Shown: positions 18,332 to 36,393, counted from the first letter of the stretch. The stretch is DNA of 64,000 nucleotides from an uncultured Deferribacteres bacterium (GCA_964014485.1 CAXHAT010000002.1:32001-96000), one strand, 5' to 3'. Notes: generated from the letters alone by a model not told the origin. A program made the numbers and translations.

Positions 18332-18371
18332 AACGCAGGAACGCCGGGCTAGCCGGCAGAGCTGGAGCATT

Positions 18372-20318: not shown

Positions 20319-22340
20319 GAGTGCGCTTTCTGCATTCTCCGTTTCAACAGCTTCTTCTTTTGGCTCCATCCACATCCCATGCTTTTTGATCAACTCGATC
20401 AATCGGCGGTCAGCGTCTTCTTCCGGGATGTTTCTTTCCACACATTCCTTGCCCACAAACAAATTGACTTTTTTGTGTCCCGAACCAACATAGCCGAAAT
20501 CAGCGTCAGCCATTTCTCCCGGCCCGTTTACGATGCATCCCATAATGGCGATTTTCACGCCTTTTAAGTGATCTGTTTGCGCTTGAATTCGCTTTGTCGT
20601 CGTCTGCAGATTAAACAGGGTTCTGCCGCAAGACGGACAGGCGATGTACTCGGTTTTAGAAATCCGAATACGCGTCGCTTGCAAGAGCGTATAAATGAAA
20701 CGAAGCGCTTCTTCGTGATTCGTCGCTCCGGAAATTGAGACGGCGTCGCCAATGCCGTCATTGAGCAACGCGCCCATCGTTGCCGCGGCGTCCAATTGCC
20801 AATCTTTTTGGTCGCTCAAAACGCGGTAATTCAAAAGCAGCGGCGCGTCTAACCCAATTTCAGCTAGGGTTGCCAAGAATCGGCGAATATTCGTCAAAGC
20901 GCCGATCACATTAGCTGGCACGTTTACCCCCATAATAATTTTCCAAAAATCGTATTTCCGACATTGCGTAACCAGAAGGTTCAGGTTTTGGAAAAGCTGC
21001 GCTTGCTCAAACTCTGGAAGAGAAAAGCCGTCAAAGTCAACGAGCAGAGGTTGGTTCTTGCGAACGGCTTTTTTCACGGCTGAATGAAAGACACGTTTAA
21101 GATCGCCGACCTGGTTGATGGAAACAGAAATGCGTTGTGCATCTCCAATGCCGTCCGTGCTTGAAATTATTGGCGTCCAGCCGTAGTTATGCGTGCGCAT
21201 TTTCCCATTTTCTGCAATGACCCACTCCGGCTTTTGCTCTGCGGCCTGGCCAAGCACGGGCAGTTTGAGCGAGCCGCTGTTGGCGAAAACGCTGTCATGC
21301 AAAACTATGCGTACAGGCTCATTTCCTCCAACGCCTTCCCCAACGATTTGTACTGGATAAGAAACTCTTCTGGCGGGATTGAGAGGCGTGAAGCGTTTGA
21401 AATAATCACCCTCGTCCGCGCCGTCCTCTGCATTTGGTGACTGCGTTTCAATCCGAGAATTATATTTTTCGGCCAACGCCCGTGCAACGGGGATTTCGTA
21501 AATCGCATCTTCGGTCAAAGAAACGCGAATCGTGTCGCCGACGCCGTCCTCCAGCAAAGTGCCAATGCCGACAGCGGATTTAATGCGTCCGTCTTCGCCG
21601 TTGCCCGCTTCCGTAACGCCGAGATGCAGCGGATAAGTCATGTTGAGTTCATACATTTTGGCGACGAGCTGTCGGTAGGCCTGAATCATCACTTTTGTGT
21701 TCGACGCCTTCATTGAAATCACAATGTCGCGGTAGCTCAGGTCTTCGCAAATATGCAAAAATTCCAGCGCCGAAGCGACCATGCCTTCCGGGGTGTCGCC
21801 GTAACGATTCATCACGCGGTCGGAAAGCGAGCCGTGGTTGACGCCGATCCGCATCGCTACGCCGTTTTGTTTGCACTTGACGACCAGGGGAGAAAAACGC
21901 TCGCGAATTCGCTCCAGCTCCGCGAGATATTCCGAGTCTGAATACTCGCGAACTTCAAATTTTTTCTTGTCAGCGTAATTTCCCGGGTTAATGCGAACTT
22001 TATCAACATAATCCGCTGCGATCAGCGCTGCGTTTGGCGTGAAATGGATGTCCGCCACAAGGGGGACTTTGACGCTCGCTTTTTTAAGCGCTTGTTTTAT
22101 GTTGGCGAGATTGTGCGCCTCTTTCATTGAAGGCGCGGTAATTCGCACGATCTCACAGCCGGCCTCGGCCAAGCCAACGGCTTCGCGAACCGTCGCTTCC
22201 GTGTCCATCGTGTCAGAAATTGTCATCGACTGAACGCGGATCGGGTTTTCCCCGCCAATGCCGATGTCGCCGACCATGACTTCGTGGGTTGGTCGACGTT
22301 TATATTGAAAAACGCTCTCGCAATATTTCTGTCCGAACAT
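20313..22340 (-). CDS. ispG: (E)-4-hydroxy-3-methylbut-2-enyl-diphosphate synthase, long three-domain form
   Basis: PIRVQSMT, PLVADIHF, RINPGN, RIGVNHGSLS, PLHLGVTEAG, GDTIRVSLT, CPSCGRTLF and MGCIVNGPGEM. ATG at 22340 has AGGAG upstream. Confidence 0.96.
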   Translation of the reverse strand: MFGQKYCESVFQYKRRPTHEVMVGDIGIGGENPIRVQSMTISDTMDTEATVREAVGLAEAGCEIVRITAPSMKEAHNLANIKQALKKASVKVPLVADIHFTPNAALIAADYVDKVRINPGNYADKKKFEVREYSDSEYLAELERIRERFSPLVVKCKQNGVAMRIGVNHGSLSDRVMNRYGDTPEGMVASALEFLHICEDLSYRDIVISMKASNTKVMIQAYRQLVAKMYELNMTYPLHLGVTEAGNGEDGRIKSAVGIGTLLEDGVGDTIRVSLTEDAIYEIPVARALAEKYNSRIETQSPNAEDGADEGDYFKRFTPLNPARRVSYPVQIVGEGVGGNEPVRIVLHDSVFANSGSLKLPVLGQAAEQKPEWVIAENGKMRTHNYGWTPIISSTDGIGDAQRISVSINQVGDLKRVFHSAVKKAVRKNQPLLVDFDGFSLPEFEQAQLFQNLNLLVTQCRKYDFWKIIMGVNVPANVIGALTNIRRFLATLAEIGLDAPLLLNYRVLSDQKDWQLDAAATMGALLNDGIGDAVSISGATNHEEALRFIYTLLQATRIRISKTEYIACPSCGRTLFNLQTTTKRIQAQTDHLKGVKIAIMGCIVNGPGEMADADFGYVGSGHKKVNLFVGKECVERNIPEEDADRRLIELIKKHGMWMEPKEEAVETENAESALL

Positions 22341-22537
22341 TTCGGAGTTCTCCTGCTGAGGGTAAAAATCAAAAAGGCCGAAAATAAGATTTTGGAAGGG
22401 TAAAATCAAGCGCTCCAATTTGCCGTTTGGCTACGAATACGTGGAGATATTGGTTTGGCGAGTGAAATGATTGGCTTAAACTGAGCGTACGGCGCTAAAT
22501 TGTTGTTTTGGAAGATGCTTTGGGCGGCAGATGCAAA

Positions 22538-22610
22538 AGCGAATGACGAGATTCGAACTCGCGACATCCGGCTTGGGAAGCCGACGCTCTACCAACTGAG
22601 CTACATTCGC
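22538..22610 (-). tRNA. tRNA-Gly (anticodon CCC); CCA not encoded
   Basis: Reverse complement GCGAATGTAGCTCAGTTGGTAGAGCGTCGGCTTCCCAAGCCGGATGTCGCGAGTTCGAATCTCGTCATTCGCT forms a full cloverleaf with D loop, TTC-GAA loop and CCC anticodon. Confidence 0.96.
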
Positions 22611-22718
22611 TTATGACTGAAGATGATCGTTATAATACGCGATTTCTGAAAATAAGCAAGCGAAAAGTAGAAGTGCGGCATGTGAAAAGGCGCAATATTT
22701 TGCGCCTCAAAAAAAGAT

Positions 22719-25103
22719 TTACGCCGCACGTCGGCGAGATCTGGCGATTAGCGGGAAGACAATTCCTGCTATCAAGAGAAACCCGCCAAGCCCCATCATC
22801 ACGTGGGCTTGCATTGCTCCAGACAGCCCTGTCGTGGCTTGCAATGTGTTGGCGCTTCCGCCGAAGCGCTGTCCCCAGAGAACCGTTGATTTCGGAACGA
22901 GGCTGTTCGATTCAAATTGAAAAATGTCTCCTGATTGCGCCGTCAGCACAACGTCCAGTTTTTCATCCCCGCGAAAATCAGCGATGACCGGCATACTGGT
23001 TCTTTCTCGCAAAGGCTCCGCTGTGTTCCAGACAGCTTTGCCTGTAGCGCCGTCCAGGATTTTGACGACTCCGGTCATGTCGACGTAAATAACGTCGGCA
23101 AGACGGTCTTTGTTGACGTCAGCGAGCGTCATGCCTTGCATAATGGCTGCGCCGTTATTTGGCGTGTGTTCCCAAAGCGGTTTTGCGCCGCCGCCTTCTC
23201 CGCTTCCCTGAAACGCTTGCAAACGACCGCTTTCGCTGGCGACGACAACATCACTGAGTCCGTCTCCGGTCAAGTCGCCGAGGGCAATTGGAAAGACGAA
23301 ATCCTGCGTAAGTGAAAGTCCGTCGCTAAGCTTCGCCTCCCAAAGCCCTTCGCGCCGCGCGCCGTCAACCACGATAATGTTGCCCTGCACGCTGCTCATC
23401 GCAAGGTCAGGCGTCTTGTCGCCGTTAAAATCAGCCACGCCGACAGGAAAACGAATTTGATTCTCGCCGTAGAATGAACCTCGCGCCTTGTTCAGCTCGG
23501 TGTTCATATCCACGGAGCCGGCGATTTGACGCGTTGCGCCGTCTATGATTAAAACCAGGCCGCGATCCGTGCCGCTCAAAATTTCACTCTTGCCGTCCTG
23601 ATCCAGGTCAGCGCTGGCAAGTGCGCTTTTCACCGGCAAGCCGAGTTCAACCAGCGTCCATTCCATATTGTTGACTGCGTCGCCATAGCCGATTCTTACG
23701 GCGCCGTGCTCTTCCGCGATAGCTGCGTCGATGTTACCGTCGCCGTTAAAATCAGCCGCGATGGGCGCGCCAGTAAACGGGCCGTTGAAAAACGGGCTCA
23801 TCCAGATTTCAGCGCCGATCTTTCCGTCAACGGCGAAAATCCGTCCGTTGTCCGAAACGAACAGCAAATCGGCCAGGCCGTTCTTGTTTAAATCCGCCGC
23901 AACGAGCTGCGCCGCCGGCCGGGCTTGCACTGTTGTCATCGTCCAGACGCTGCGTCGTCGTTCGCCGTCGATAAGCATTGGATTGTTGCTCGAAGTCAGC
24001 ATTGCAATATCAACAAGGCCGTCGCCGTTGAAATCGCTGACCGCCGGTGAAGGCTGGAAAATGTTGACGCCGCCGTATGAAGATTGCAGTCCGAAGCTTT
24101 CGGATGAGCCGTCCGCGCTTTGGCCCCAGTCGGTCATCTGAACGGAAAACGGATCAGGTTTTTGCGCAATCACCGAGCGATCGAGCCAACCTTTGGTCAA
24201 AAGAAAAATTCCGCTCAAAACCGCGGCGGCGGCGACGAGCGTGGAAAGCTTGCTGCGATAACGCACCGACCAAACGCCCGCTTTTTTCGGGGGCGCGAAA
24301 CTGGCGCTTTGTTCTTCTGCAAAGCGGAAAATCGTGCTCTGCTGGTCGCTGACAATTTCGATCTCATCGCCGGGCTGGAGCACGGTCTCGCCGGTTTCCG
24401 GAATTTCAATTTGATTGACGAAAGTTCTGGTCTTGCTGCGCTTGTCGCTAACAACAAACTGCCCGTCGCGATACTGCACCGTGGCGTGTCTGCGCGAAAT
24501 GCTCGGGTCGATTTCACCGCGCTTGTTTTCACGAATAACAATGTCGTTCAATTTGTTATCGCGCCCAATTCTGGTTTCGCCATAACGCAGGCGAAACTTT
24601 TTGCCGCGATAAGGGCCGTAAATCGCCAGCAAGTAGTAGGGCGCCGTCTCTCCGGCGCCGCCGATAGATTGCTCGTAACTCTGGGAACTTTCATTCATCG
24701 TCACCGGTGAAGCGTCGACTGTGATTTCTCCGGTCGCTGAGCCTTCGCCCGCCGCCGATTCTGCTGCGGCATGTGTGATTTCTGGAGAACTTTGGCCAAT
24801 GTAGTCAAGCGGATTGTCGAACAAAATTTCGTGTTCGCCGATTTTGATTTGGTCGCCGTTGTTCAGTGGCTGGCGCTTGCTCAACTTGGCGCCGTTTAAC
24901 AGCGTGCCAAATGCACTTTTCATGTCCTGAACAAAAAACGCATTATCAATTCTGGTTAACTTGACGTGGGTCATGGAGACGCGCTTGTCTTCCAGGACCA
25001 GGTCATTTTGGTCTTCCGAACCTATGGTGAAGTATTTTTGTTCACCTGAAAGGTTAAGTTCTTTGAGAACTTCCGCTTTTTTCTTAACGATCAACCGTGG
25101 CAT
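22719..25103 (-). CDS. Membrane protein with two N-terminal FHA domains, TM, extracytoplasmic FG-GAP/VCBS repeat propeller and C-terminal TM
   Basis: FHA motifs (IGSEDQNDLVL..SMTH; IGRDNKLND..SRRHA); TM LVAAAAVLSGIFLL; about 7 repeats of type DFNGDG/DLNKNG/DLDQDG/DLTGDG/DVNKD; C-terminal TM followed by RSRRRAA. Confidence 0.88.
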   Translation of the reverse strand: MPRLIVKKKAEVLKELNLSGEQKYFTIGSEDQNDLVLEDKRVSMTHVKLTRIDNAFFVQDMKSAFGTLLNGAKLSKRQPLNNGDQIKIGEHEILFDNPLDYIGQSSPEITHAAAESAAGEGSATGEITVDASPVTMNESSQSYEQSIGGAGETAPYYLLAIYGPYRGKKFRLRYGETRIGRDNKLNDIVIRENKRGEIDPSISRRHATVQYRDGQFVVSDKRSKTRTFVNQIEIPETGETVLQPGDEIEIVSDQQSTIFRFAEEQSASFAPPKKAGVWSVRYRSKLSTLVAAAAVLSGIFLLTKGWLDRSVIAQKPDPFSVQMTDWGQSADGSSESFGLQSSYGGVNIFQPSPAVSDFNGDGLVDIAMLTSSNNPMLIDGERRRSVWTMTTVQARPAAQLVAADLNKNGLADLLFVSDNGRIFAVDGKIGAEIWMSPFFNGPFTGAPIAADFNGDGNIDAAIAEEHGAVRIGYGDAVNNMEWTLVELGLPVKSALASADLDQDGKSEILSGTDRGLVLIIDGATRQIAGSVDMNTELNKARGSFYGENQIRFPVGVADFNGDKTPDLAMSSVQGNIIVVDGARREGLWEAKLSDGLSLTQDFVFPIALGDLTGDGLSDVVVASESGRLQAFQGSGEGGGAKPLWEHTPNNGAAIMQGMTLADVNKDRLADVIYVDMTGVVKILDGATGKAVWNTAEPLRERTSMPVIADFRGDEKLDVVLTAQSGDIFQFESNSLVPKSTVLWGQRFGGSANTLQATTGLSGAMQAHVMMGLGGFLLIAGIVFPLIARSRRRAA

Positions 25104-25143
25104 CTATGCATCTCCCTTGCAACGTGCGAGAATTTCCTTAAAT

Positions 25144-27996
25144 CTATTTTCTTGCGGTCAGCCGAAAAGTCAACCTGTTTTGCTGATCGGTTCTAATTCT
25201 GAGGTTTTTGGTGCTGGCCTCATAGCCCGGCTTAATAACGGTGAATTGATAATTGCCTGGAGGTAATTCGCCAATAACCGCCCCGGCCGGATCGGATACG
25301 CCAAGCTGCTGCTCTCTCTCCTGAGCCCCCCGAATTTTGTACAAAACCTGTGAAACGTTGACAGGTTCGTTGCTGTTATCGTCAACGATAAAAATGGAAA
25401 TGGCCGCCGTTTCCGGCTTCATTCGCGCCACAATCGTTTTGGCGTCGGGCGGAATCTGGACATAAGTGTCTTTGTGCCCTTTTTTTCGGAGAACAGCCGT
25501 GTAGCGCAGCGGCAGCAGGGTGACGTCGGTTGGCGTCGTTTCGTTGAATTTGGTTGAATTGTCGCGAGAACGCAGTTCAACCAAAGTTGCTTCAAGATCG
25601 CTGTCATCGCCGCTGTTTGCGTCTTTCGCAAAAATGCGAACCACCCGTGAAAGACTTTCCGTGAGTTCAACAGGCGTGTTTTGATCGACGTCCAGGCTGA
25701 AACGGCGCGGCAAATAACCGCCCTTGCGCAGCGTAATCACATGCTGCCCAACGGTCAAAAACAATGACCCGCTCAAGCCGGTAATACCGACGGGGCGCTC
25801 ATCTTCGTCGAGATAAATTTCAGCGCGCGCCGGATTGGAGTTTATCGTAATGCCTTTTCTGAACACGCCTTCGATGGCAAAATGATCTTTGGTGTTGTCG
25901 AGACGCTGAAATTTCCAGAAACGACGGTCGCTGATGGTTTCAGCTCCCTGAACGCCGTCGATTTCCATGCCTTCAAGGGTCGGAAAACCTGGGCGCGACA
26001 TGCGGATGCGCATCGGTTCTTCCGACACGTCCCAATAAACTGTTGTCGGCGTTTGCTGCGCCAATTTCACTTCGTTAATAAAAACGTCCGCCCCGGGAGG
26101 TTGTGAAGAAAGCTCCAACTGCGCTTTGAATTTAAACACGTACGGCGTACTCGCACTGCGAGACTCTTCTCCGGCAATCTTGAGTTGTTCACCTTGCCCG
26201 GGAACAGTAATCGATTTCACGATGGGATCGAAGCGCGGAATCGTCAGCATGAGTTTGTGAACGCCTGGCGTGATTTCTTCGATTCTCAGCGGAGTCGTTT
26301 GTTGCAAAGGTTTGTCATCAATGAAGACTTGCGCTCCGGCGGGGACAGATTCGATTTTGATAGCCGGGGGAAAAATCGTGTCGTAAATCGCGACGCCGAA
26401 GGGTGTGAATTGCATAAACGCGTCCGCTGCAGCGAAGCCAATAAACAGAGTCAGCAGGGAAAACAAGCCGATCAAAAGGCCGCGCTTGTGCGAGCGTGCG
26501 GAAAGCCTGACGACGTCAATAATCGTCTTTAATTCTTCATCTTCACCCTCGTCAGCGACGCCGACGTCATTTTTTTGTTCGGGCATGATCGTATAAAATG
26601 AAGAAACAGGCTCCGCGCTTTGAGCGTTTTCCGTTTCCAAGACTTCAACGACCGGTTCGTCTTCGACAGGCGGCGCTTTCTCTTTTTTGGCGCGTTTGGG
26701 TTTTGCCTTTCTACCTTTTGATTTTGGAGCGTCGTCCGTTTTCGTTGAAGCGCTTTTTTCAGAATCTTGATTCATTTGCCGGGTCAGCTTTTCCACTTCC
26801 GTGGTTTGCGTCGCCTCTTTCAGCTCAACCTTTTCTTGCGATTGCTGACTTTCAAGTTCATTCACGGCTTGATCTGAAATTTCGATCAAGTCTTCCAATC
26901 CGTCATTGGTCGCGCCTGCGGGAACGGCGTTTTCTGTTTTCTTAGCTGTCTTGGCGCGCGTTTTTTTCGCACTGCGGCGCTTGGAAGATGAAGTTGTTTT
27001 GGCGCTTTGCGCTTTTTTGCGAGTCGGCGGCTTTTTCTTTGGTTCCGCCTTTGTGGGGGGCGCCGTGTCCTCAGCCGGAGCCGCTGCGCCGACAAATTCG
27101 GAAAGCTCTTGTACAAAATCTGATGCCGGAGCCGTCATAATCAAGTGGTGCATCAAATCCATGTACATGTGATTAGCGCTTGGGTAACGTTCTTCAGGCT
27201 TGGGAGCAAGCGCTCTTTTAACGGCGTCGCGCAGCTTTTCCGGTGTTTCCAAAGCGTCGAGTTTGGAAACGTCCCATTTGCCGCTTTGAAGTTGCGTGAT
27301 GGTCTCTTGCGGCGATGTGGAAGCGAAGAGCCGTTCGCCGGTGATGATTTCGTACAAAACGAGACCAAGTGAGAAAATATCCGTTCTGCGGTCGGGGTCG
27401 GTTTGACCGTTTAGCTGCTCCGGAGCGAGATAATTGAGCGTGCCTTGTACCGAGATTTCATTTTTTTTCTTAGACTGTTGACGGCGCAAATTCGCCATCC
27501 CAAAGTCGATAATCTTGACTTCGCCGTTGCGCGTAATCATGATATTCGACGGAGAAATATCCTGGTGGACAACGTTGAGCGGCTCATTCGTTTCAGTGTC
27601 GCGCCGGTTATGCGCGAAGTCGAGACCGGCGCAAGATTCCGCGACGATGTAAACGCCCAAGTGCAATGGAATTTGCTTTCCGCTCTTTTGGGCCGATTTC
27701 AGCAGTTGCGACAAATCCGGGCCGTCGATAAATTCCATGATGATATAGAATTGGCCGTTATCGCCGCGCTTGATGTCAAACACATGAACGATATTGTGGT
27801 GATTTAGCCTGGCGATGTGCAGCGCTTCGGCTTGAAACATGTCGATGTATTTTGCTTCTCCCAAAAGCGAGGGATCGACGGCTTTAATAGCCACGGATTT
27901 CCCGAAGAGCAAGTCCGTACCCCGGTAAATGATACCGAAGCCTCCGCGCTTGATCTCTTGTTGAATTTCGTACTTTTCGTCAATGACGGTTGTCAT
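25144..27996 (-). CDS. Hanks-type Ser/Thr protein kinase with low-complexity linker, TM and extracytoplasmic PEGA/Ig-like domains
   Basis: GGFGIIY, VAIK, HQDISPSN, DFG, YLAPE and DIFSLG; TM; PEGA motifs IESVPAGAQVFID, SSQPPGADVFIN and NSNPARAEIYLD. ATG at 27996 has GAGGA upstream. Confidence 0.92.
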   Translation of the reverse strand: MTTVIDEKYEIQQEIKRGGFGIIYRGTDLLFGKSVAIKAVDPSLLGEAKYIDMFQAEALHIARLNHHNIVHVFDIKRGDNGQFYIIMEFIDGPDLSQLLKSAQKSGKQIPLHLGVYIVAESCAGLDFAHNRRDTETNEPLNVVHQDISPSNIMITRNGEVKIIDFGMANLRRQQSKKKNEISVQGTLNYLAPEQLNGQTDPDRRTDIFSLGLVLYEIITGERLFASTSPQETITQLQSGKWDVSKLDALETPEKLRDAVKRALAPKPEERYPSANHMYMDLMHHLIMTAPASDFVQELSEFVGAAAPAEDTAPPTKAEPKKKPPTRKKAQSAKTTSSSKRRSAKKTRAKTAKKTENAVPAGATNDGLEDLIEISDQAVNELESQQSQEKVELKEATQTTEVEKLTRQMNQDSEKSASTKTDDAPKSKGRKAKPKRAKKEKAPPVEDEPVVEVLETENAQSAEPVSSFYTIMPEQKNDVGVADEGEDEELKTIIDVVRLSARSHKRGLLIGLFSLLTLFIGFAAADAFMQFTPFGVAIYDTIFPPAIKIESVPAGAQVFIDDKPLQQTTPLRIEEITPGVHKLMLTIPRFDPIVKSITVPGQGEQLKIAGEESRSASTPYVFKFKAQLELSSQPPGADVFINEVKLAQQTPTTVYWDVSEEPMRIRMSRPGFPTLEGMEIDGVQGAETISDRRFWKFQRLDNTKDHFAIEGVFRKGITINSNPARAEIYLDEDERPVGITGLSGSLFLTVGQHVITLRKGGYLPRRFSLDVDQNTPVELTESLSRVVRIFAKDANSGDDSDLEATLVELRSRDNSTKFNETTPTDVTLLPLRYTAVLRKKGHKDTYVQIPPDAKTIVARMKPETAAISIFIVDDNSNEPVNVSQVLYKIRGAQEREQQLGVSDPAGAVIGELPPGNYQFTVIKPGYEASTKNLRIRTDQQNRLTFRLTARK

Positions 27997-28104
27997 AGTT
28001 TTCGCAATCCTCAATACTTCAGCTTTGCTATAAAAGATTGGCCGCTTCCATGTACATTTTCCCGGAGGGTGTTCAGGCAGGCGATAATGCGTGCTTCGCG
28101 CCAA

Positions 28105-28120
28105 AGCAATTAATATGCCA
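28105..28120 (-). promoter_or_regulatory. sigma54 (-24/-12) promoter upstream of the kinase-FHA operon
   Basis: The minus strand reads TGGCAT-ATTAA-TTGCT, matching TGGCAC/T-N5-TTGCW with exact spacing, about 110 bp upstream of the kinase ATG. Confidence 0.7.
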
Positions 28121-28417
28121 CTGGTCGTGTGTAGTAGGTTGTTGATTTAAAAGAATTTAAGGCGCCTTGAAAGTTTCTGGATTGACACATCGCAAGAAAC
28201 TTGTATCACGCTGAAACAGGCGTCTTGGATCGGACAATAAGCGTCGCTCGAGCTGATAAAAACAAAGGCCAAAACGGATTTCGCGCCGCCGCGCGCCGAA
28301 CGCCGACTCCAATAAATGACGAGCGGAATGAATTCGCAAAGAGCGCATCCAGGAAGGTTCAACTTTGCCTGTTTTCACCATTAAAATTCGAAGAATCGGA
28401 AGCCGCCCGGAGATGTT

Positions 28418-30055
28418 CTAAGACTCCGTGCGCCGCTCAGCCATTTCTTTTTTCAACGCGTCCTCAAGCACAAGAATGGCTTCATTGTCAGGTTTGCCCG
28501 CCCCAAGGTAGCTGTTTGTGACGATTGTGTTGATTTCAGCAAACCGCCTTGTTTCAAGCTTTAACTTTAGCACTGTTTTATAAATTTTCATCGCTTCAAT
28601 ATCTTCCCTGCCGCTCAAAAGATAAAGATTCGCGAGGGCGGCGTAGAGCTTGAGATTGCCCGGATTCCGTTCCATCGCTTTTTCATAAATGAGCGCCGCC
28701 GCGTGGTAGTTACCGCGCATGGTGTACAGTTTGGCGCGCGCCACAGGCGAAAACGCCGCAAAGATGATCAAAGGAATCATGACGCCGGCGATGACGCCGC
28801 CGCGCAGAATCCAGCCGTCAAAGCCGGTGCTCTGCTCAGGGTGCTTTTCAATTTCTGAGGAGTAAGCGTCGTTAAAGTTGGATTTCGCCGTTTCCATGAG
28901 GGCGTTAACGTCGCGAAAAGCCGTGTCGTGGGAAACGATGATTTCGAGATTCGCTAGGCTTTCTCGCCACTTGTCGTCATCCTGAAAAGCCAATGCTCCT
29001 AGATACAATGAATCCAGATAGGCTTCGGTTGCGGTTGTTTCATCTTGCTCGAGATTCGGGCTTGCGTTTTCCAAAATTTCTTCGCCTTCGCTGGCGAGTT
29101 CTGGAATAAAACCGCTGCTGCTATCGGCGCTGGCAACAAGAGTATCTGGAATTGAAGAAACACTGGATGGCGATTTTTGTGGAACGACGGCGTCGGCAAC
29201 CTTTGCGGAATCCTGTACGCCATCTTGCCCAACCAAATTTTGGGTAGAGTCTGAAACGGCTTTAGAAACAAAAACGGGCGGCTTCTCATGCTTTTTGAGC
29301 CGTTCGTTCTGAGCTGCGGCGCGTCTTGTTTCCAACTGTTCCTTTAAAATCGCATCAATCTCCGCCAGGCGCTCCGTCACGTTGCGGAAATCAGGCTTTT
29401 TCTGGCTGATTTGCAGCAGCAGCGCCTTGGCGCCGTACAAATCCTGAGATTCAATCTTCTGCATTGCGGCGTCGTAAAGCTTCTGCAGTTCTTGCGCAGC
29501 TTTTGTCATGGAAAGCAGATTGTCAAAGTAGCTTCGGTCGCCCGCGTTATAAGCGCGACCGGCTTGCAGTTCAACGATTGCTTCGTCGTACCGCCCTTGG
29601 TTGTATAAAATTCGCCCGCTTTCAAAGCGCGTCCGCGAAAGGAGGGACTTGTCCACGTTGAGGTTGCGAGCTTGTTGGAAAAACTGTAGGGCGAGGTTTG
29701 CGTTGCCAACTTTTGAGTGTAATTTTGCCAGTTGGAAAAGCACTTTATACTGCGTTCGAGCCCCGCTGCCGGGAAAGGCGCTCTTGTGCGCTCTGTTTAA
29801 GTAGATTTCTGCGCGTTTGAAATTCGTCTTTTGCTGGTAAATTGTTGCCAACTCGAGCAGTGCGGCAATATTGTCGGGGTCTGCTTCCAGAGTCTTTTGC
29901 AGCGCATCGATCTTTTTGTTGTCGTCTTTTTTCTTAAGAGCGCGCTCATGTTGCTTCTTGGCGTCGCCGCCCTTTTCTTGAGCTTGCAAAGCGTCGCCCC
30001 ATTGAAACAATATTCCCCCCAAAAGCACTGCTATAACGCCGGTGAATTTCCTCAT
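28418..30055 (-). CDS. Bitopic membrane TPR protein (signal peptide, TPRs, S/D/E-rich linker, TM, C-terminal TPR)
   Basis: N-terminal signal peptide; DPDNIAALLELATIY-type TPRs; TM GGVIAGVMIPLIIFAAF; C-terminal AALIYEKAMERNPGNLKLYAALANLY. Confidence 0.8.
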   Translation of the reverse strand: MRKFTGVIAVLLGGILFQWGDALQAQEKGGDAKKQHERALKKKDDNKKIDALQKTLEADPDNIAALLELATIYQQKTNFKRAEIYLNRAHKSAFPGSGARTQYKVLFQLAKLHSKVGNANLALQFFQQARNLNVDKSLLSRTRFESGRILYNQGRYDEAIVELQAGRAYNAGDRSYFDNLLSMTKAAQELQKLYDAAMQKIESQDLYGAKALLLQISQKKPDFRNVTERLAEIDAILKEQLETRRAAAQNERLKKHEKPPVFVSKAVSDSTQNLVGQDGVQDSAKVADAVVPQKSPSSVSSIPDTLVASADSSSGFIPELASEGEEILENASPNLEQDETTATEAYLDSLYLGALAFQDDDKWRESLANLEIIVSHDTAFRDVNALMETAKSNFNDAYSSEIEKHPEQSTGFDGWILRGGVIAGVMIPLIIFAAFSPVARAKLYTMRGNYHAAALIYEKAMERNPGNLKLYAALANLYLLSGREDIEAMKIYKTVLKLKLETRRFAEINTIVTNSYLGAGKPDNEAILVLEDALKKEMAERRTES

Positions 30056-30448
30056 GACGCCTCTCTGCTTCGGTATAGCTGTCGTCTTTTTTTGTCATGA
30101 TCCCCAAAACCGGACTTGTAAAACAGACTATTCCGATTACTCTGACTCAGCTTTGTTCAAAATGAAAATGTTGAAGCGCACGGACTGCCTTGCCGTTCCG
30201 TTTAAGTTGGCCCACAAGCAACCGCCCGGCTTTTCCGGCCCGTTTCTTCTTTTATTCGGTTTCAATAAAAGCAAGTAGCGTGAATCCTGGCTTTCATCGA
30301 TTTAAACGTATTGTAGTAAGTACTGAAAAATTGTCGAATTTGCGGTAAGAGAAATGTAATTAATCATAGGAAGAAGGTGGAGTGAGCGCGACCGATTCTC
30401 GACCGCGCTTGTATAAAATGATTCGCCCCCTGCGAAAGGCTTGCCTCA

Positions 30449-33400
30449 CTAAAACGATTGTGAGAAACGAATTATTGCCAGACGGCCAACCTCAGGCGCC
30501 CCGATCATCTCCCTGTGACGGCGATTCAGCAGATTCTGTACTGAGAGCGTGGCCTGCGTATTTTGGAAAATATTGAAATTAGCGTTGAAATCGACCACGG
30601 TATAAGCTTCAATTTCCCCAACAAACGCACCTGAGTTAACCGGAAAACCGTCCACAAAACGGAACCTTACCTGCGCGTTCAGGCCGCGAGTGAAATCGGA
30701 ATAATTCAAGAAAGCGCCTGCCTTATTTTTTGGAGCGTTCAAGGCAATGTCCGCCACGCCGTCGAGGTTCTCGAAAAGGTCGCGGCTGACAAAGGAGTAG
30801 TTGCCGCCAACTCTCCATTTTGGCGAAAGCGACCAGGAAAAGCGGGCGTCAGCGCCAGTCAACCAGATGCTGCCGAAGTTTCGATAGGTCACGAGAACGT
30901 CGTTTTCCGTGGCAAGCTGGGTCGGCGTAAGTACGCCCACCGGAATATTTTCCAGATTGAGCGGCGAAGCGGGGTTGTAGATTTCCGCGACAGTCGCTTG
31001 CGCCGTGCTGCGCGCCAATGCTTCCGGCGTGCCAAGAGCAACCAGACGCTGGACAATGTCTTCTTCAAGCACCGGGCCGACCAATGCCTGGGCCGCATGA
31101 ACTGTCGGCGTAATCACGATCAGCGGACTGACGAAATTTTCGATGTGCGAACGATAAATATCAAAGTCGAAAGATAGTTTTTCGAACAACACGCCCTTGT
31201 AACCGAACTCGAATGAGTTGGTGACGGTCTCCCGGATCGGCTCTGCATCGAATGCGTTTTGGGCAAGATTTCCAGTCACCGGATCGATAAACGCCAGCGG
31301 AACATTTTGACTCAAAGTTTCGGGCAACACGGCGTCAGCCTGCGGATTTGCGGCGACCAAAATGGCGCGCAACTTGGGCCAGACGCTGTTAATGCGCGCT
31401 TCAGAATAGCCGTCAACGGCGTCAAATTGCGAACGCATCTGGGCGCGTCCGTCATTCCCAAGTTCGAAGGAAAACCCGCCTTCTGCGGGAACGCCTTTGA
31501 CGCGAATATTGACGATGTTTTCGCTAAGGCCAAGCGCGGCTTGCAACGGCGCCGGAAGCGGATTGGGAACGCTTTCTTGCAAAAGGTCTAAGAAAAGCGT
31601 GTTGCTGGTCGGCGTGCTGAAGGCTCTGTTAAAAGTGAATCGAAAATTGTTTTGTTGGTTCGGGCGCAGAACAAGCGCGGCGCGCGGTGAAAAAACCGGC
31701 TTTTCAATGAAATTGTGTTCATCGATGCGACCGGCGGCGACAAACCTCAATTTCGATGAAAGATCGAGCTCGGATTGAACGTAAAAGCCAAACTCATTAA
31801 TGCTGTCATTATCTTCATTCTCGCCGTTGATCGTGCGCTCTGTGTTTGGCCGCGTGAGCAAAACGTCCGTTCCCCAAGTGACGCGCCGAGTTTCCCCAAA
31901 CGACAATGCGTGTTGAACTTGAGCGACATAGAGTCGCGACTTGTCCACGATGGGATCGCCCGTGCGCAAAACAAAGGAATCGCCGGCGTTGGTTAAATTG
32001 GTAAAAGCTTGTACGAACAAATTACGATGTTTGAACCGCCCTTGCGCGTAACCGTATTTCCAGTCAACGGCCTGCCCGGCGCCAATTCCGGTAAGCTCGA
32101 TGTTGCTCGCCGAAGTAAAGCCGGCGTTAAGAATTAACGACGTTGCTTCATTGAATTGAAAATCCGCTCTTGCATCACCCGAAAATTTTTCAACGTCAAA
32201 ATCGCGTGCGCCAATCTTAAGCGTTGCCGGATCTGCGCCCTGCTGAAGCGCGGCTTCACGAGCTTGATTTTCTTCGATGTCAAAAGATTCCCAGTCATGC
32301 CCTTGATAATATTGTCCGGACAACTTGTAGCCGAATTTTCCACCAAAGCTTTTTGCATGACGGAATGAACCCATTCGCAGGGCGCGTTCGCCGCCGCCGA
32401 TGCTCACCGTCGTTCCTTCCGATCCGATAGGCGATTTTGTGATCATGTGCATGACGCCGTTCGCGCTGTTTGGCCCGTAAAGCGCCGATCCCGGCCCCAG
32501 CACAACTTCAATGCGTTCAATATCTTGATTGATGTTCGGGATAAGCTGGTAAGCGTTGACGCGCAACGAAGGAATACGGGCGATACGGTGATCGACGAGA
32601 GAAAGCAGCGACCCGGAAAAAACGTTGTTAAACCCGCGCACAACCGTTATGGCGGAATTAAGTCCGGTACTGGCCACGTCCACCGCCGGTTCGCCTTTCA
32701 AAAATTCGGTTGGCGTAATGGCCGGACGTTGGGAAATATCATTCTCATCGATCACGCTTACCGCCGCGGGCGCTTCCAGTTTCGCTTCCGGTCGCCGTGA
32801 AGCGGTAACAGTAATTGGATTGAACTGGAGCCCGCTGTATTTGAGCGCGATTTTGATTTCCTGAACTTGGCCTTCTGAGACGCGGACGTTTTGGATAACC
32901 GTCGTCTCATATCCAAGATACGAGCCTCTGACCGTGTAGACGTCCGGCTGGAGATTGTCCGCGCGAAATCGTCCCGCCATTCCGGAAGCGGCGCCTCGCG
33001 CAGGGTTGAGATTTGAAGAAGGAATAATTTCAATATTCGCGGCTGGCAGCGACTCGCCGCTTTCGCTGTCATAAATCAGACCTGATAAAACGCCGTAGCT
33101 GGTTTGAGGCTGCTCCGCGGGCTGAGAAACAACGTCCGTAGTTTGGGAAGCAGTGGGCGGAAGCGTCGGGGCTGTGCTGTTGACAACAGGGGGGACGGAC
33201 GTATTTTCGTTAGAGTAGTTTTTATCGGCGCCGTTGCGGATCGGCATGATTTGGCCGTTATAAACGACAATGTTGGCCTGGCAGTCCGTGATAATAATGT
33301 TTTTTAAAAGGGCGTTAGTACGCTCGGCTGAAATCGGTGATTCGCAATAGCGGATAATCGCGTTTTGGACAACGCTTTGACTGCTGCCCGGGCCAAATTC

Positions 33401-33742
33401 GAGCCCGCCCCAATCCGTCGTGGTCGGAGGTTGCGCGCCGGTGCTGCCGGTAAAGAAAAAATCCGCGTCGCGTTGAGAAGTGAAAATAATCCTGTTGTTC
33501 GGTGCGCCGACGGCTTTTAGAATGCCGTTGACGCGAATCTTGAACGGCCCGGCCGCCTTGACAACGACCCCAGGTTCAATGACAAGCTCAGTTCCGGGTA
33601 GAATCGAAACCTCGCCGGTTAAGATGATCGGACTGGCGGCCAGCGTCCACGTTCCGAATTGCGGTCCGCTCACTTCTTTTGCCTGAATCGCCCCTGCCGA
33701 AAAAATGCTGAAAATTGCCCAAAACTTGAAACAACGTCTCAT
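30449..33742 (-). CDS. TonB-dependent outer-membrane receptor with extra N-terminal beta-helix-like domain and carboxypeptidase-regulatory-like domain
   Basis: ITVTASRRPE (TonB-box/plug start), IERIEVVLGPGSALYGPNSANGV, C-terminal VQNLLN...RFSQSF ending in F; N-terminal LVIEPGVVV..GILKAVG..IIFTS..WGGLEF. Confidence 0.92.
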   Translation of the reverse strand: MRRCFKFWAIFSIFSAGAIQAKEVSGPQFGTWTLAASPIILTGEVSILPGTELVIEPGVVVKAAGPFKIRVNGILKAVGAPNNRIIFTSQRDADFFFTGSTGAQPPTTTDWGGLEFGPGSSQSVVQNAIIRYCESPISAERTNALLKNIIITDCQANIVVYNGQIMPIRNGADKNYSNENTSVPPVVNSTAPTLPPTASQTTDVVSQPAEQPQTSYGVLSGLIYDSESGESLPAANIEIIPSSNLNPARGAASGMAGRFRADNLQPDVYTVRGSYLGYETTVIQNVRVSEGQVQEIKIALKYSGLQFNPITVTASRRPEAKLEAPAAVSVIDENDISQRPAITPTEFLKGEPAVDVASTGLNSAITVVRGFNNVFSGSLLSLVDHRIARIPSLRVNAYQLIPNINQDIERIEVVLGPGSALYGPNSANGVMHMITKSPIGSEGTTVSIGGGERALRMGSFRHAKSFGGKFGYKLSGQYYQGHDWESFDIEENQAREAALQQGADPATLKIGARDFDVEKFSGDARADFQFNEATSLILNAGFTSASNIELTGIGAGQAVDWKYGYAQGRFKHRNLFVQAFTNLTNAGDSFVLRTGDPIVDKSRLYVAQVQHALSFGETRRVTWGTDVLLTRPNTERTINGENEDNDSINEFGFYVQSELDLSSKLRFVAAGRIDEHNFIEKPVFSPRAALVLRPNQQNNFRFTFNRAFSTPTSNTLFLDLLQESVPNPLPAPLQAALGLSENIVNIRVKGVPAEGGFSFELGNDGRAQMRSQFDAVDGYSEARINSVWPKLRAILVAANPQADAVLPETLSQNVPLAFIDPVTGNLAQNAFDAEPIRETVTNSFEFGYKGVLFEKLSFDFDIYRSHIENFVSPLIVITPTVHAAQALVGPVLEEDIVQRLVALGTPEALARSTAQATVAEIYNPASPLNLENIPVGVLTPTQLATENDVLVTYRNFGSIWLTGADARFSWSLSPKWRVGGNYSFVSRDLFENLDGVADIALNAPKNKAGAFLNYSDFTRGLNAQVRFRFVDGFPVNSGAFVGEIEAYTVVDFNANFNIFQNTQATLSVQNLLNRRHREMIGAPEVGRLAIIRFSQSF

Positions 33743-34156
33743 CGTTCGCCTGAAATATTTCCTGATTGATTGTGATTTGAATTTGACGTTAGCCTGACGA
33801 TTCCCTGAAAAACGAGCGGCGTTGCCAGTGTTCGAATGGTCGATGTGAGTGTGAGTCTACAGCCGTGATTGAGGGTCTTCGGGAATTATGCCACGATAGT
33901 TACTATCGGCAAACAATGGAAAATGCGGCGCGGGTAAATTGAGGATTGTTTGGGGGAAGTAAGGTTTGAGCGCGAGACATCCCCAATTTGCGGAAATATT
34001 AGCGGAATTTCATGAGAATAACCATTGGAAGAAGAGGTTTGGCGGGAATCCAGCGGCTGTGCACCATTTTTCGGGCGCCCGCCGGAGTTTATCCTTGTGC
34101 AGGTGGATACTGTTGGCGAATTCACAATTCATGGGGAATACAGATGACGCGCCATT

Positions 34157-34289
34157 CTTATTAGCTACGCGCTTCAGCGCGTAGGCATGAGTGCGAGCGC
34201 ATACCCCTTTTTTTCCCGCCGAGATAGCTCAGTTGGAAAAAAGAAGAGCGCACGACCGGGTCCACGCGCTGAAGCGCGCGGCTAATGAG
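34157..34289 (+). repeat. REPIN-like palindromic element, copy 3 (diverged, same architecture)
   Basis: CTTATTAG+CTACGCGC-TTCA-GCGCGTAG ... central TTTTTTCC/GGAAAAAA hairpin ... CCACGCGC-TGAA-GCGCGCGG+CTAATGAG; 133 bp. Confidence 0.8.
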
Positions 34290-34417
34290 ACATCCGGACA
34301 GGAACGATCCGGAATTCATTAACAGTATCCAGACGAGGCGGAAATGATGCATAGAGGAATGCCTTGATTTAGGCGCGTTGCATCGGCCGGCAAGTGAGTT
34401 GATTGACGAAGAAAGCT

Positions 34418-34927
34418 TTATATTTTGCCGAAGCGACGCCGGAAAATGGGAGAAAATAGAAATTTATCGAGCAATGTCGCGCAAACAAGCACGGCTGCGG
34501 CCATGAGTGTGAAAGAAATGTTTTCAGGCGAGAGCAGGCTGGAATCGTTTAAAAGCGCTTTCGTTTCCGTCAACCATCCCGGTGAATCGCCAAACCCTGT
34601 GTGTACAAAATTTTTCAGTCGATCGACGCCAATTATATAAATCAGGCTGACCAGACTAAAAAGCGCGGCGAAAGCAAACAACAACCACTCGAGTGATTGC
34701 CTCAACTGTTTTGCTTCGACTGAAATTTGCGCCAAAACCATGCTTTTGAAATCCGCGGGAAGCGTCACCTGCGGGGCGACTTTCAAATTTCTATAAATTT
34801 CTTGATAAGCTTCCAAACTGTTTTGGCATTGATGACACAACTGCAAATGTTGTTCGATTTCTGAAGCTTGGCGCATAGGAGCGCCGTCGAGAAAAGCCTG
34901 GATTTCACGGTCGGTTAAGTGACTCAT
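34418..34927 (-). CDS. Membrane-bound zinc-binding (HxxxCxxC) anti-sigma factor
   Basis: HL..REIQAFLDG..EQHLQLCHQC and two TM helices; ATGA overlap with the sigma gene. Confidence 0.85.
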   Translation of the reverse strand: MSHLTDREIQAFLDGAPMRQASEIEQHLQLCHQCQNSLEAYQEIYRNLKVAPQVTLPADFKSMVLAQISVEAKQLRQSLEWLLFAFAALFSLVSLIYIIGVDRLKNFVHTGFGDSPGWLTETKALLNDSSLLSPENISFTLMAAAVLVCATLLDKFLFSPIFRRRFGKI

Positions 34928-35568
34928 ACCCAAATTTCCTCCGCGCTATATTTTTCAAGAAGTTTTTGTTTGAGTATTTTTCTGGCGCGATATAGGTAGC
35001 TTTTAATAGTCCCGTCAGGCAGGGCTGTGACCTCGCGAATTTCTTTCAGACTGAGTTCGTCGACATGGAAGAGCGTGACGAGCGTTTTGTAAAGCGGCGG
35101 CAAATCGTCGATTTCATCTTGTAACTGGCGCGCCAATTCACGCTTTTCGGCTCTTGAATCCGGCAACAGCTCTCCGCCGTAAGCGCTTTCCGAAAACTGC
35201 GAGAGTGCGTCTTCGCGGCCCGCCGAATAATCGTTCTGTTCGAAGCATAAGTCTTCGACGAGCGGCACTTTTTTCTTTTTCAGATAGTTGAGGCAGGAGT
35301 TATATGCGATCCGTGCGATCCAGGTGGAGAGTTTGGAATTGAATTGGAATGAAGCGAGGTTTTTGTAGACCTTGAAGAAAATCTCTTGACACAATTCTTC
35401 ACGATCATTTTCATGCGAAACCATTCTAAAAACGACGTGACCAACCAGGTTTTGGTATTGATCGATAATAGCGCCAAAAGCGGACGATTCGCCTGACAAT
35501 ACTTGTTTGATCAGTGCTTTTTCGCGTTCCGGCGCGCTTGCGTTTCTGTCTATGGTTTCCGATAACAT
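34924..35568 (-). CDS. ECF-family RNA polymerase sigma factor
   Basis: Region 2 ELCQEIFFKVYKNLASFQFNSKLSTWIARIAYNSCLNYL; region 4 LSLKEI..LPDGTIKSYLYRARKIL. Confidence 0.95.
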   Translation of the reverse strand: MLSETIDRNASAPEREKALIKQVLSGESSAFGAIIDQYQNLVGHVVFRMVSHENDREELCQEIFFKVYKNLASFQFNSKLSTWIARIAYNSCLNYLKKKKVPLVEDLCFEQNDYSAGREDALSQFSESAYGGELLPDSRAEKRELARQLQDEIDDLPPLYKTLVTLFHVDELSLKEIREVTALPDGTIKSYLYRARKILKQKLLEKYSAEEIWV

Positions 35569-35577
35569 GTTTTAAAA

Positions 35578-35604
35578 AGACAACTTATTCGCAAGCAAGT
35601 TGCA
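35578..35604 (-). promoter_or_regulatory. Candidate ECF promoter for the sigma/anti-sigma operon (TGCAAC-N17-GTCT)
   Basis: Minus strand TGCAAC ttgcttgcgaataagtt GTCT, ending 9 nt before the sigma ATG. Confidence 0.6.
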
Positions 35605-35649
35605 TAAAAATGACCGACGCAATGTATTTGAAGAAAATATTTTGAAACT

Positions 35650-35676
35650 TGCAACTTGCGCCGTTCAGCCCTGTCA
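35650..35676 (+). promoter_or_regulatory. Candidate ECF promoter for the divergent membrane-protein gene (TGCAAC-N17-GTCA)
   Basis: TGCAAC ttgcgccgttcagccct GTCA mirrors the divergent motif. Confidence 0.6.
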
Positions 35677-35743
35677 GTTGGAAACACAACAGCGCGGTTG
35701 TTGATTGAGAAATGTACTCGCCTGAAAAAATAAGGAGACTAAA

Positions 35744-36082
35744 ATGGCCGGAGATATAATTCCTCTTGTCGCTATCGTTGTCACGTTTTTTTCTTTGGTT
35801 GTCATTATTCGCACAATTTCCGATAACAAAGTGAAGCACCGCTTGATAGAAAGAGGCGAATTCACCGAACAAGCGGCGCATACACTTGCCAACATGTCCA
35901 GCAGCGTATCGTCCTTGAAATGGGGCTTGATACTCGTGGCGATCGGCTTCGGGTTTTTGTTGATTAACATGTTCCCGCGCATGTTCGATGACGAAGCCGC
36001 ATTGGGCCTTTTGCTAATCGCAGCGGGGGTTGCCCTTTTCGCACATTATTTTATGTCGCCGAAACTTGCGAAAAAAGAATGA
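35744..36082 (+). CDS. Small membrane protein (DUF6249-like) divergent from the ECF sigma factor
   Basis: TM, then RLIERG, SLKWGLILVAIGFG and two further TMs; AGGAG RBS. Confidence 0.75.
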   Translation: MAGDIIPLVAIVVTFFSLVVIIRTISDNKVKHRLIERGEFTEQAAHTLANMSSSVSSLKWGLILVAIGFGFLLINMFPRMFDDEAALGLLLIAAGVALFAHYFMSPKLAKKE

Positions 36083-36310
36083 TTCATTGAAGTTTGTCTT
36101 CAAATAACGATTGTCCAGGACGCGCCCGGTAAAAAAACGCAGGAGGGAGCCAGGCGCGTTTTTGTCCCCATTTTCTCGATCCGCCAGCCGTTCACATCGT
36201 CATCCATCCGTTTTACAACATTCCCTTAACTGTATCGCACCATCAAATGTCTTTCCAAAATCTTCATAAGTTGTCTAACTTTTGCCATAAAAATGGCTTA
36301 TGAATATTTT

Positions 36311-36337
36311 TTGAACGACCCCTTTGCCGCCTCGTCT
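36311..36337 (+). promoter_or_regulatory. Candidate ECF promoter upstream of the TPR/CMD cluster (TTGAAC-N17-GTCT)
   Basis: TTGAAC gacccctttgccgcctc GTCT has the same spacing as the two motifs flanking the sigma gene. Confidence 0.45.
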
Positions 36338-36393
36338 ATAAACCCGAATTTTGATCAAGGAACCCTTCAAAACCATTAATCGAGGAGTATTAC

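Follow-up and report, generated by a model that had tools for sequence, protein, structure and literature searches.

The 64,000-nucleotide stretch of an uncultured Deferribacteres bacterium considered here (GCA_964014485.1 CAXHAT010000002.1:32001-96000, hereafter the window) carries four co-oriented minus-strand genes that code for a TonB-dependent receptor, a bitopic tetratricopeptide repeat (TPR) protein, a transmembrane Hanks-type kinase with PEGA domains, and a membrane protein in which two FHA domains are joined to an FG-GAP propeller. An open reading frame (ORF) check and Pfam searches confirmed these genes and their domains as a sequence-only reading had described them. That reading combined the four products into a single Ser/Thr signalling system spanning the envelope; we favor a different interpretation, to which we assign a probability of about 0.7, namely that the region is made up of separate units: the upstream half of a KSB1 inner-membrane Ser/Thr phospho-signalling cluster, an independent receptor, and a separate pair of genes for an extracytoplasmic function (ECF) sigma factor and an anti-sigma-like protein. 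The genes at 22719–30055 would then constitute the upstream half of a KSB1/Zhuqueibacterota-specific cluster, and the module is completed by a PP2C phosphatase and a TPR-pseudokinase, neither of which featured in the earlier reading.

Gene order was compared in two sets of loci that overlap in genomes, one of 20 loci from 17 related genomes and one of 61 loci with a full-length protein, found by a profile-guided scan of named species-representative genomes. A PEGA kinase gene lies directly upstream of the FHA gene in all 20 loci of the first set and in all 47 named loci that retain the flank, and the proposal that these two genes form a real pair is borne out. The gene directly downstream of the FHA gene codes for PP2C at 40 of 50 loci and for a TPR-family protein at the other ten, a TPR-family gene directly precedes the kinase at 10 of 43, and a second kinase gene is present further downstream at 20 of 34. 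Forty-nine of 100 flanking ORFs were submitted to Pfam, and 13 of the 15 downstream neighbors among them match PP2C_2; the remaining two are a TPR protein and a locus at which PP2C was found by tblastn in the named copy of the contig. The conserved unit is (bitopic TPR)–PEGA Hanks kinase–FHA-FHA-propeller protein with two transmembrane helices–membrane PP2C–(TPR)–TPR-pseudokinase; where relatives have the complete cluster, one or two bitopic TPR proteins are encoded between PP2C and the pseudokinase. The receptor has no place in this unit. No receptor was found near the kinase/FHA pair in any of the 61 named loci or within about 10 kb in the set of 20, and a tblastn search with the receptor (E < 0.01) gave no match in those 20 loci. 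Synteny of all four genes, which the sequence-only reading had offered as its own test, thus holds for the kinase–FHA pair and fails for the receptor; the receptor–TPR–kinase–FHA arrangement is specific to this genome and is not conserved.

Strong homologues of the FHA/FG-GAP protein occur in every genome searched of four families of the same class (f1, f2, f5 and f6), a tally in which two unpublished genomes (G016 and G023) are counted, though no conclusion relies on them. Four other families of the class (f3, f4, f7 and f8) gave no convincing homologue, only weak, partial or FHA-domain-level hits. All 61 loci are in metagenome-assembled genomes labelled KSB1, Zhuqueibacterota, Calditrichaeota or similar, and outside this group only FHA domains were matched. 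A protein search returned 281 entries at E 1e-10 or better; the FHA plus FG-GAP architecture is common to the 120 listed, and homologues carry no annotation beyond 'FHA domain-containing protein'. The cluster had been described as not a named system, and we agree: the cluster proteins all score below the cut-offs of the NCBIfam models, literature searches provided neither a name for the cluster nor an account of the combinations PEGA, FHA and kinase or FG-GAP and FHA, and the texts of two KSB1 papers (PMC11683472 and PMC9012183), supplements apart, yield no mention of FHA, TonB, PP2C, sigma or tetratricopeptide in a term search. Some KSB1 genomes (for example G031 and G036) have three or four paralogous kinase–FHA/propeller clusters. 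Among the paralogous loci (L030–L032, L075–L078, L083, L102–L106 and L113) one subtype has a TPR-family gene instead of PP2C directly after the FHA gene, and another has a GAF–SpoIIE phosphatase gene divergently upstream.

The kinase ORF matches Pfam Pkinase (6.9e-40), three PEGA stretches (8e-28) and a C-terminal CarboxypepD_reg domain, and has one transmembrane helix. The predicted protein has a kinase domain, a long low-complexity linker, a juxtamembrane K-T491-I-I-D motif, the helix at 506–524, and a periplasmic part with the PEGA and CarboxypepD_reg-like domains. Translation had been taken to begin at a TTG (28104) that lies right beside a sigma54-type motif; because the N-termini of the orthologues align with MTTVIDEKYEI, the most likely start is instead the ATG at 27996. 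In all 47 kinase sequences the glycine loop (G18–G21), K38, E57, H144, D146, N151, D164-F-G and P192-E193 are invariant, as are T491, I493 and D494 immediately before the helix. By these residues the protein is a Hanks-type Ser/Thr kinase predicted to be catalytically intact, and its catalytic HQD motif, in place of HRD, makes it a non-RD kinase.

The FHA/FG-GAP protein is predicted to comprise FHA1, a disordered linker, FHA2, a transmembrane helix (285–303), a propeller (about 320–745), and a second, previously unnoticed helix (768–786) followed by a short arginine-rich tail. Pfam identifies two FHA stretches (1e-33) and FG-GAP_3 (1.1e-28), and Yop-YscD_cpl matches both FHA domains (E 2.3e-25). 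The phosphothreonine pocket of FHA domains is formed by a Gly-Arg pair, Ser-x-x-His and Asn, and the corresponding residues of FHA2 (G180, R181, S203, R204, H206, S223 and N230) are invariant in 54 of 54 sequences; FHA2 looks competent for phosphothreonine binding. At FHA1 the residue that follows G28 is serine, threonine, alanine or cysteine in 17 of 18 sequences and arginine in only one, and FHA1 is probably a degenerate domain that does not depend on phosphothreonine. Both parts needed for the Thr-phosphorylation proposed earlier, a kinase with its catalytic residues and an FHA domain with its pocket, therefore appear to be in place.

The propeller contains eight Asp-rich repeats of the D-x-[ND]-x-D-G type, not seven, and the C-terminal helix with its arginine-rich tail is conserved; the comparison covered 54 sequences, 18 of them examined in full. 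An AlphaFold2 model of the protein (predicted local distance difference test score, pLDDT, 87.2; predicted TM-score 0.70) was compared by Foldseek, and the top matches to the propeller are the eight-bladed proteins BamB, YxaL, ITFG2 and Bap1 and the designed Cake proteins (Cake8), with E values down to 6e-15 and target-normalised TM-scores of 0.67–0.79 for the BamB entries; no integrin appears among the 50 matches listed. These models describe an eight-bladed, BamB/Bap1-like propeller, which departs from the seven blades of integrin alpha. Both transmembrane helices have positive-inside flanks, and because the propeller lies between two predicted inner-membrane helices, in an organism that encodes TonB-dependent outer-membrane receptors, it is predicted to be periplasmic and neither surface-exposed nor integrin-like. 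The idea that this protein is an integrin-like, surface-exposed adhesion receptor, as the sequence-only reading held, draws on the Asp-rich, calcium-binding-type loops of the eight FG-GAP repeats and on the biofilm matrix protein Bap1 being among the fold matches; set against the predicted topology, the blade number and the BamB-type character of the best matches, we regard it as very improbable.

Contact between the PEGA ectodomain and the propeller was the one pairing modelled among the multimer predictions that had been suggested. The predicted contact scores 0.43 against 0.00 for the best control, a mark that is reached by 116 of 157 solved complexes and by 2 of 215 mismatched pairs; scores at or below 0.60 include only 18 of the 157 solved complexes together with both of the mismatches that passed. 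Partner pLDDT is at least 80 and run-to-run contact agreement at least 0%. The models thus give a weak indication that the two ectodomains may touch.

The PP2C orthologue in this genome (543 aa, 51% identical to that of the closest relative, G001) is on another contig, C141; two TPR-family genes and the gene for a 774-aa TPR-kinase come next, contiguously and in the same orientation. The PP2C residues D17, G19, D42, G43, G135-D-S-R138, D210, G211, D250 and N251 are invariant in 36 of 36 sequences, and with these metal-binding residues it belongs, as judged from the alignment, to the PP2C/PPM phosphatases; its score with the NCBIfam Stp1/IreP model is 226.9 bits against a cut-off of 230. One transmembrane helix precedes a periplasmic C-terminal domain of about 215 residues. 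Homology of this ectodomain with the terminal beta-sandwich of the kinase was considered and set aside as too weak (hhalign probability 22%, E 1e-3, 72 columns). The second kinase has the catalytic aspartate in none of 25 sequences (asparagine in 19, arginine in three, lysine in two and serine in one) and no glycine-rich loop; it retains K532 in 24 of 25 and D647 (the DFG aspartate) and APE in all 25, and has no transmembrane helix. Its sequence marks it as a soluble TPR-pseudokinase.

Taking the assembly as given, the cluster is split in this genome, with the PP2C–TPR–TPR–pseudokinase half on C141. Downstream of the FHA gene the window has tRNA-Gly(CCC) and then ispG, so that the tRNA gene stands where relatives carry PP2C and marks the downstream end of the cluster fragment. 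None of the contigs listed from public sequencing runs spans the FHA stop codon, the tRNA gene and ispG. C141 ends 400 nt upstream of PP2C in a dispersed repeat of about 65 nt, and nothing there is shared with the sequence after the FHA gene. Near-identical copies of this repeat (in the last ~200 bases of C141, at the end of L134) number more than 100 genome-wide, many of them exactly at contig ends, which probably accounts for much of the break-up of the assembly into 465 contigs. The repeat is unrelated to a repeat element at 34105–34330 of the window.

The motif TGGCAT-N5-TTGCT at 28105–28120, noted previously as a sigma54-type promoter in front of the kinase and FHA genes, is the only match to the sigma54 consensus in the window. 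As a single match it does not exceed chance, since at least one match occurs in 14 of 100 shuffled sequences, and it becomes significant because it recurs upstream of kinase orthologues. A motif with at most one mismatch is present between −300 and +30 of the kinase start at 13 of 48 related loci, in 11 of them at −108 to −152, against a background of 0.005 per 330 nt, or about 0.24 expected over the 48 loci. Thirteen of 30 gene-strand hits precede the kinase, there is no enrichment before other cluster genes, and loci of both f1 and f5 type are represented. We conclude that the kinase is preceded by a conserved putative sigma54-type promoter. The genome contains rpoN and 54 Sigma54_activat matches, none of which adjoins the locus; within the window the closest lies at a distance of about 23 kb. 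About 45 of these 54 AAA+ activator matches are strong, and the one in the window lies at about 4490–4990; the number points to unusually heavy sigma54-dependent regulation in this 8.4-Mb genome.

The bitopic TPR protein has a signal-peptide-like N-terminus, periplasmic TPRs (about 39–165), a linker, a transmembrane helix (421–439) and cytoplasmic TPRs (about 439–497). The earlier description of TPRs on both sides of the membrane agrees with this predicted layout, and a member of the family often accompanies the kinase–FHA pair. In G001 it aligns best with the TPR gene that immediately precedes the kinase (49% identity, E 1.3e-50); the TPR gene adjacent to the G001 receptor reaches 33% (E 4e-25). 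The TPR family is present in f1 (9 of 9), f2 (19 of 19) and f5 (2 of 2); in f6, where the kinase–FHA–PP2C cluster is present, the window TPR query gave no TPR-family match. In a quick IQ-TREE analysis of 39 rows the base of the family is unresolved. We considered that recombination of paralogues at the two types of locus had produced a hybrid TPR gene that joins them here, and rejected this since both halves are nearer the kinase-associated TPR of G001 (36% and 48%) than the receptor-associated one (31% and 28%).

The receptor is a TonB-dependent receptor, with Pfam matches to Plug (E 1.6e-14, 54.8 bits, cut-off 23.9) and TonB_dep_Rec_b-barrel (2.3e-24, 87.5 bits, cut-off 27) and a CarboxypepD_reg match at 219–301 (2.9e-13); ITVTAS, before the plug, we take to be TonB-box-like. 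Residues 1–218 match no Pfam family and form the extra N-terminal domain. In an AlphaFold2 model of residues 1–320 (pLDDT 76) a beta-rich domain (about 22–167) is separated by a disordered linker from a transthyretin-like N-terminal extension (NTE) domain (217–300), and the latter resembles carboxypeptidase-D-type and SusC NTE domains in structure comparisons. Foldseek with the receptor N-terminus matched only this NTE/transthyretin-like domain. In structural alignment the beta-rich domain pairs only with right-handed beta-helix proteins, at middling Z scores of 8.0–8.9 and with an Atlas lead of 0.90, and residues ~22–167 are accordingly modelled as beta-helix-like.

Full-length receptor orthologues that include the N-terminal extension were found in nine of 40 relatives, always on contigs other than that of the kinase cluster. 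Among nine same-family genomes with the kinase cluster, this query recovered such an orthologue in one and none in the other eight. At all eight receptor loci examined there are one to four upstream and one or two downstream bitopic TPR paralogues, and no kinase, FHA, PP2C or ECF sigma gene within about 17 kb. These orthologues (L046–L053) are embedded in conserved arrays, each with three to five bitopic TPR paralogues, and the receptor-type arrays look like a second, uncharacterised envelope system. The beta-helix N-domain is also encoded separately, as a protein of about 620–650 aa beside TPR genes, for example on contig C145 of this genome (L135 6273–10725), where it is followed by two DUF3857/transglutaminase-like proteins. 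The junction between receptor and TPR genes in the window is bridged by independently built contigs from public runs (X1 record 6, 30010–31137, and X2 record 13, 30209–30749).

Thr phosphorylation had been proposed to operate in place of FecIR-type ECF signalling, a contrast that overlooked the ECF sigma/anti-sigma pair directly upstream of the receptor. Two transmembrane helices are predicted in the 171-aa anti-sigma-like protein, whose NCBIfam anti-sigma match is below cut-off. The gap of 676 nt that separates the pair from the receptor contains a terminator-like hairpin and a repeat resembling a miniature inverted-repeat transposable element (MITE). ECF sigma genes are near receptor orthologues at none of the eight loci and near kinase loci at one of 61 (8 kb away). 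We therefore rejected the pair as a regulator of the receptor, the linkage not being conserved. FecA–FecR–FecI systems are similar in having a TonB receptor with an N-terminal periplasmic extension that stands beside an ECF pair and a bitopic inner-membrane protein, and differ in that the extension here is a predicted beta-helix plus NTE domain and that neither STN nor FecR is among the Pfam and NCBIfam matches. The ECF pair is a separate unit and is not FecIR-like. The MITE-like element between the anti-sigma and receptor genes (34105–34330) has 27-nt terminal inverted repeats (34156–34182 and 34264–34290) and is matched by blastn 28 times across 20 contigs of the genome; in one public run 34123–34262 is replaced by 38 other letters, which suggests presence/absence polymorphism.

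In the phospho-signalling cluster we favor, the non-RD kinase would be constitutively competent and would phosphorylate a cytoplasmic threonine, the best candidate being its own juxtamembrane T491-I-I-D and the alternative a threonine of a partner protein, for instance the pseudokinase. This phosphothreonine would be read by FHA2 of the adaptor and erased by PP2C. The PEGA domains, propeller, PP2C ectodomain and TPR domains may sense, or assemble on, a periplasmic or envelope cue and so shift the balance of kinase and phosphatase, with cytoplasmic TPR modules and the pseudokinase acting as scaffold or output. In this lineage the sigma54 promoter and an activator would drive transcription of the kinase and FHA genes. 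The receptor would be an independent outer-membrane transporter that was moved beside the cluster by a genome-specific rearrangement. This interpretation is supported by a conserved writer, reader and eraser with intact residues, by their membrane topologies, by gene order and by the promoter motif.

Several observations weigh against it. The pathway is deduced from sequence and models, and the candidate phospho-site T491 and its proposed reading by FHA2 are drawn from conservation. The sigma54 motif was not found in loci of the sister family f2. The locus counts are not independent, given shared genomes and common descent. The division of the cluster over two contigs, C2 and C141, may have arisen in the assembly, with a repeat at the end of C141 and no bridging contig among those listed. 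The clade of the window TPR is left unsettled by the tree, which places it outside the f2 receptor-flanking clade (Shimodaira–Hasegawa-like approximate likelihood ratio 80). TPR-family members occur in the kinase cluster as well as around receptor orthologues (8 of 8), and with a real receptor–TPR junction here a functional link through TPR proteins keeps some probability.

That last point bears on the original proposal that receptor, TPR protein, kinase and FHA protein form one trans-envelope chain, in which bitopic TPRs couple the receptor N-domain to the Thr-phosphorylation module and replace FecIR. It is consistent with the adjacency and common orientation of the four genes across a junction that independent contigs bridge, with the TPR paralogues at every receptor locus and the separate N-domain protein beside a TPR-family gene on C145, and with TPR-family genes flanking the kinase cluster (10 of 43 before the kinase, 10 of 50 after the FHA gene) and co-occurring with it in f1, f2 and f5. 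The receptor, however, lies within about 10 kb of the kinase/FHA pair at no locus of either set, its own eight loci lack kinase, FHA and PP2C genes, eight of nine same-family genomes have the cluster with no full-length receptor orthologue found, f6 has the cluster with no TPR-family match to this query, the window TPR is nearest the kinase-associated TPR of G001 and not the receptor-associated one, and the genes here are separated by spacers of 394 and 314 nt with their own promoter-like and hairpin signals; we consider such a chain unlikely. What still connects these data to the trans-envelope idea is the TPR family alone, among whose paralogues the receptor orthologues sit. A more general form would make the KSB1 bitopic TPR proteins trans-envelope couplers, whose periplasmic TPRs dock the beta-helix/NTE part of dedicated TonB-dependent receptors and whose transmembrane helix and cytoplasmic TPRs feed a kinase/FHA/PP2C/pseudokinase complex. 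This is a long shot; if it were true, threonine phosphorylation, and not an ECF sigma factor, would signal that ligand had bound at the outer membrane, and the window would show side by side a whole chain that other genomes keep as two loci.

An alternative explanation for the cluster itself is that it is a housekeeping regulator of envelope growth or division, like actinobacterial PknB–PstP–FhaA–MviN(pseudokinase), and not an environmental sensor. The logic of the parts is the same, with an active Hanks kinase, PP2C, an FHA reader and a pseudokinase; the cluster is in every f1, f2, f5 and f6 genome searched, and BamB, whose fold is nearest to that of the propeller, is an envelope-assembly factor. 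According to the review PMC12599244, PknB phosphorylates the MviN pseudokinase domain and thereby recruits the FHA domain of FhaA. On the other hand, the scan of flanking genes showed no peptidoglycan or division genes, the presence of three or four paralogues in some genomes (G031, G036) is a better fit to sensor diversification, f3, f4, f7 and f8 have no convincing homologue, and the sigma54 promoter suggests conditional expression. A housekeeping role seems to us doubtful, and we retain the sensory phospho-signalling cluster as the better account.

In mycobacteria a transmembrane Hanks kinase with an extracytoplasmic sensor, a membrane PP2C, FHA readers and a pseudokinase are encoded together, and this PknB/PstP/FhaA-FhaB/MviN circuit, with the same four kinds of part, is the closest known system. 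Here, in contrast, the ectodomain is PEGA/CarboxypepD_reg and not PASTA, the kinase is non-RD (HQD), the FHA protein is itself a predicted membrane receptor whose eight-bladed propeller faces the periplasm, the pseudokinase is a soluble protein joined to TPRs in place of a flippase, bitopic TPR proteins are added, no cell-wall synthesis genes are among the flanking genes scanned, and NCBIfam scores are below the PknB, Stp1 and FhaB cut-offs. The PpkA–PppA–Fha1 pathway of the Pseudomonas aeruginosa type VI secretion system (T6SS) also has a kinase with a periplasmic domain, and envelope accessory proteins (TagQRST) relay a surface signal to it. The present cluster shares this kinase/PP2C/FHA triad and differs in that the FHA protein is membrane-anchored with its own ectodomain, that the score with the TagH-type FHA model, 66 bits, falls short of the cut-off of 120, and that no T6SS genes were seen in the neighborhoods examined. 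The type III secretion proteins YscD/EscD/PrgH resemble the FHA protein in having an N-terminal cytoplasmic FHA domain, a transmembrane helix and a periplasmic domain, as the Yop-YscD_cpl match reflects, and degenerate FHA domains of YscD type also lack the canonical arginine. Here, however, a propeller takes the place of ring-building motifs in the periplasm, FHA2 is canonical throughout, genes for a kinase and a phosphatase are the partners of the FHA gene, and no secretion-system genes are nearby. BamB, YxaL, Bap1/RbmC and ITFG2 have the eight-bladed fold in common with residues ~320–745, and Bap1 and ITFG2 also have similar FG-GAP/VCBS-type Asp-rich loops; sequence identity is 12–17%, and here the propeller lies between two transmembrane helices and is fused to cytoplasmic FHA domains.

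Features of the region are collected in Table 1. Hairpins accompany the sigma70-like match in the receptor–TPR spacer, and this match is a possible promoter for the TPR gene itself. An Rfam scan of window positions 20000–37000 found the tRNA only, with no riboswitch or small RNA. Just beyond ispG, at 17543–20318 on the plus strand, a small HisKA_2 histidine kinase gene overlaps the start of a gene for a hybrid response-regulator–PAS–histidine kinase–response-regulator protein; this pair is not conserved near the kinase cluster in relatives. Divergent from and upstream of the ECF sigma gene, a 493-aa TPR-rich protein is encoded at 36394–37875 (plus strand), which by tblastn is outside the bitopic TPR family.

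Table 1. Coordinates of genes and signals in the region (window positions).
Feature	Position	Strand	Remarks
tRNA-Gly(CCC)	22537..22611	minus	ARAGORN and Rfam
FHA/FG-GAP protein gene	22719..25103	minus	794 aa
PEGA kinase gene	25144..27996 (ORF as first read 25144-28104)	minus	950 aa from ATG 27996
Sigma54-type -24/-12 motif TGGCAT-N5-TTGCT	28105..28120	minus	about 110 nt upstream of kinase ATG
Bitopic TPR-family protein gene	28418..30055	minus	545 aa
Sigma70-like promoter match TCGACA-16-TACAAT	30310..30337	minus	receptor–TPR spacer; consensus scan, 10/12 positions, pattern match only
TonB-dependent receptor gene	30449..33742	minus	1097 aa
ECF sigma factor (34924-35568) and small anti-sigma-like protein with two transmembrane helices (34418-34933)	34418..35568	minus	Pfam Sigma70_r2/r4_2

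The logic of the cluster is known from other kinase/FHA/PP2C triads, and this membrane-reader version of it is uncharacterised. It is unusual in that writer, reader and eraser are each a membrane protein with its own periplasmic domain, that the reader holds an eight-bladed propeller between two transmembrane helices, and that a TPR-pseudokinase and bitopic TPR proteins are conserved alongside. The correction made here matters, for the eye-catching four-gene arrangement from outer membrane to cytoplasm belongs to this genome only, whereas the cluster is found across the uncultured phylum KSB1/Zhuqueibacterota. It is a candidate for how KSB1 bacteria of sediments and hot springs sense their envelope or surroundings, and would offer a natural case of an FHA adaptor that is itself a receptor.

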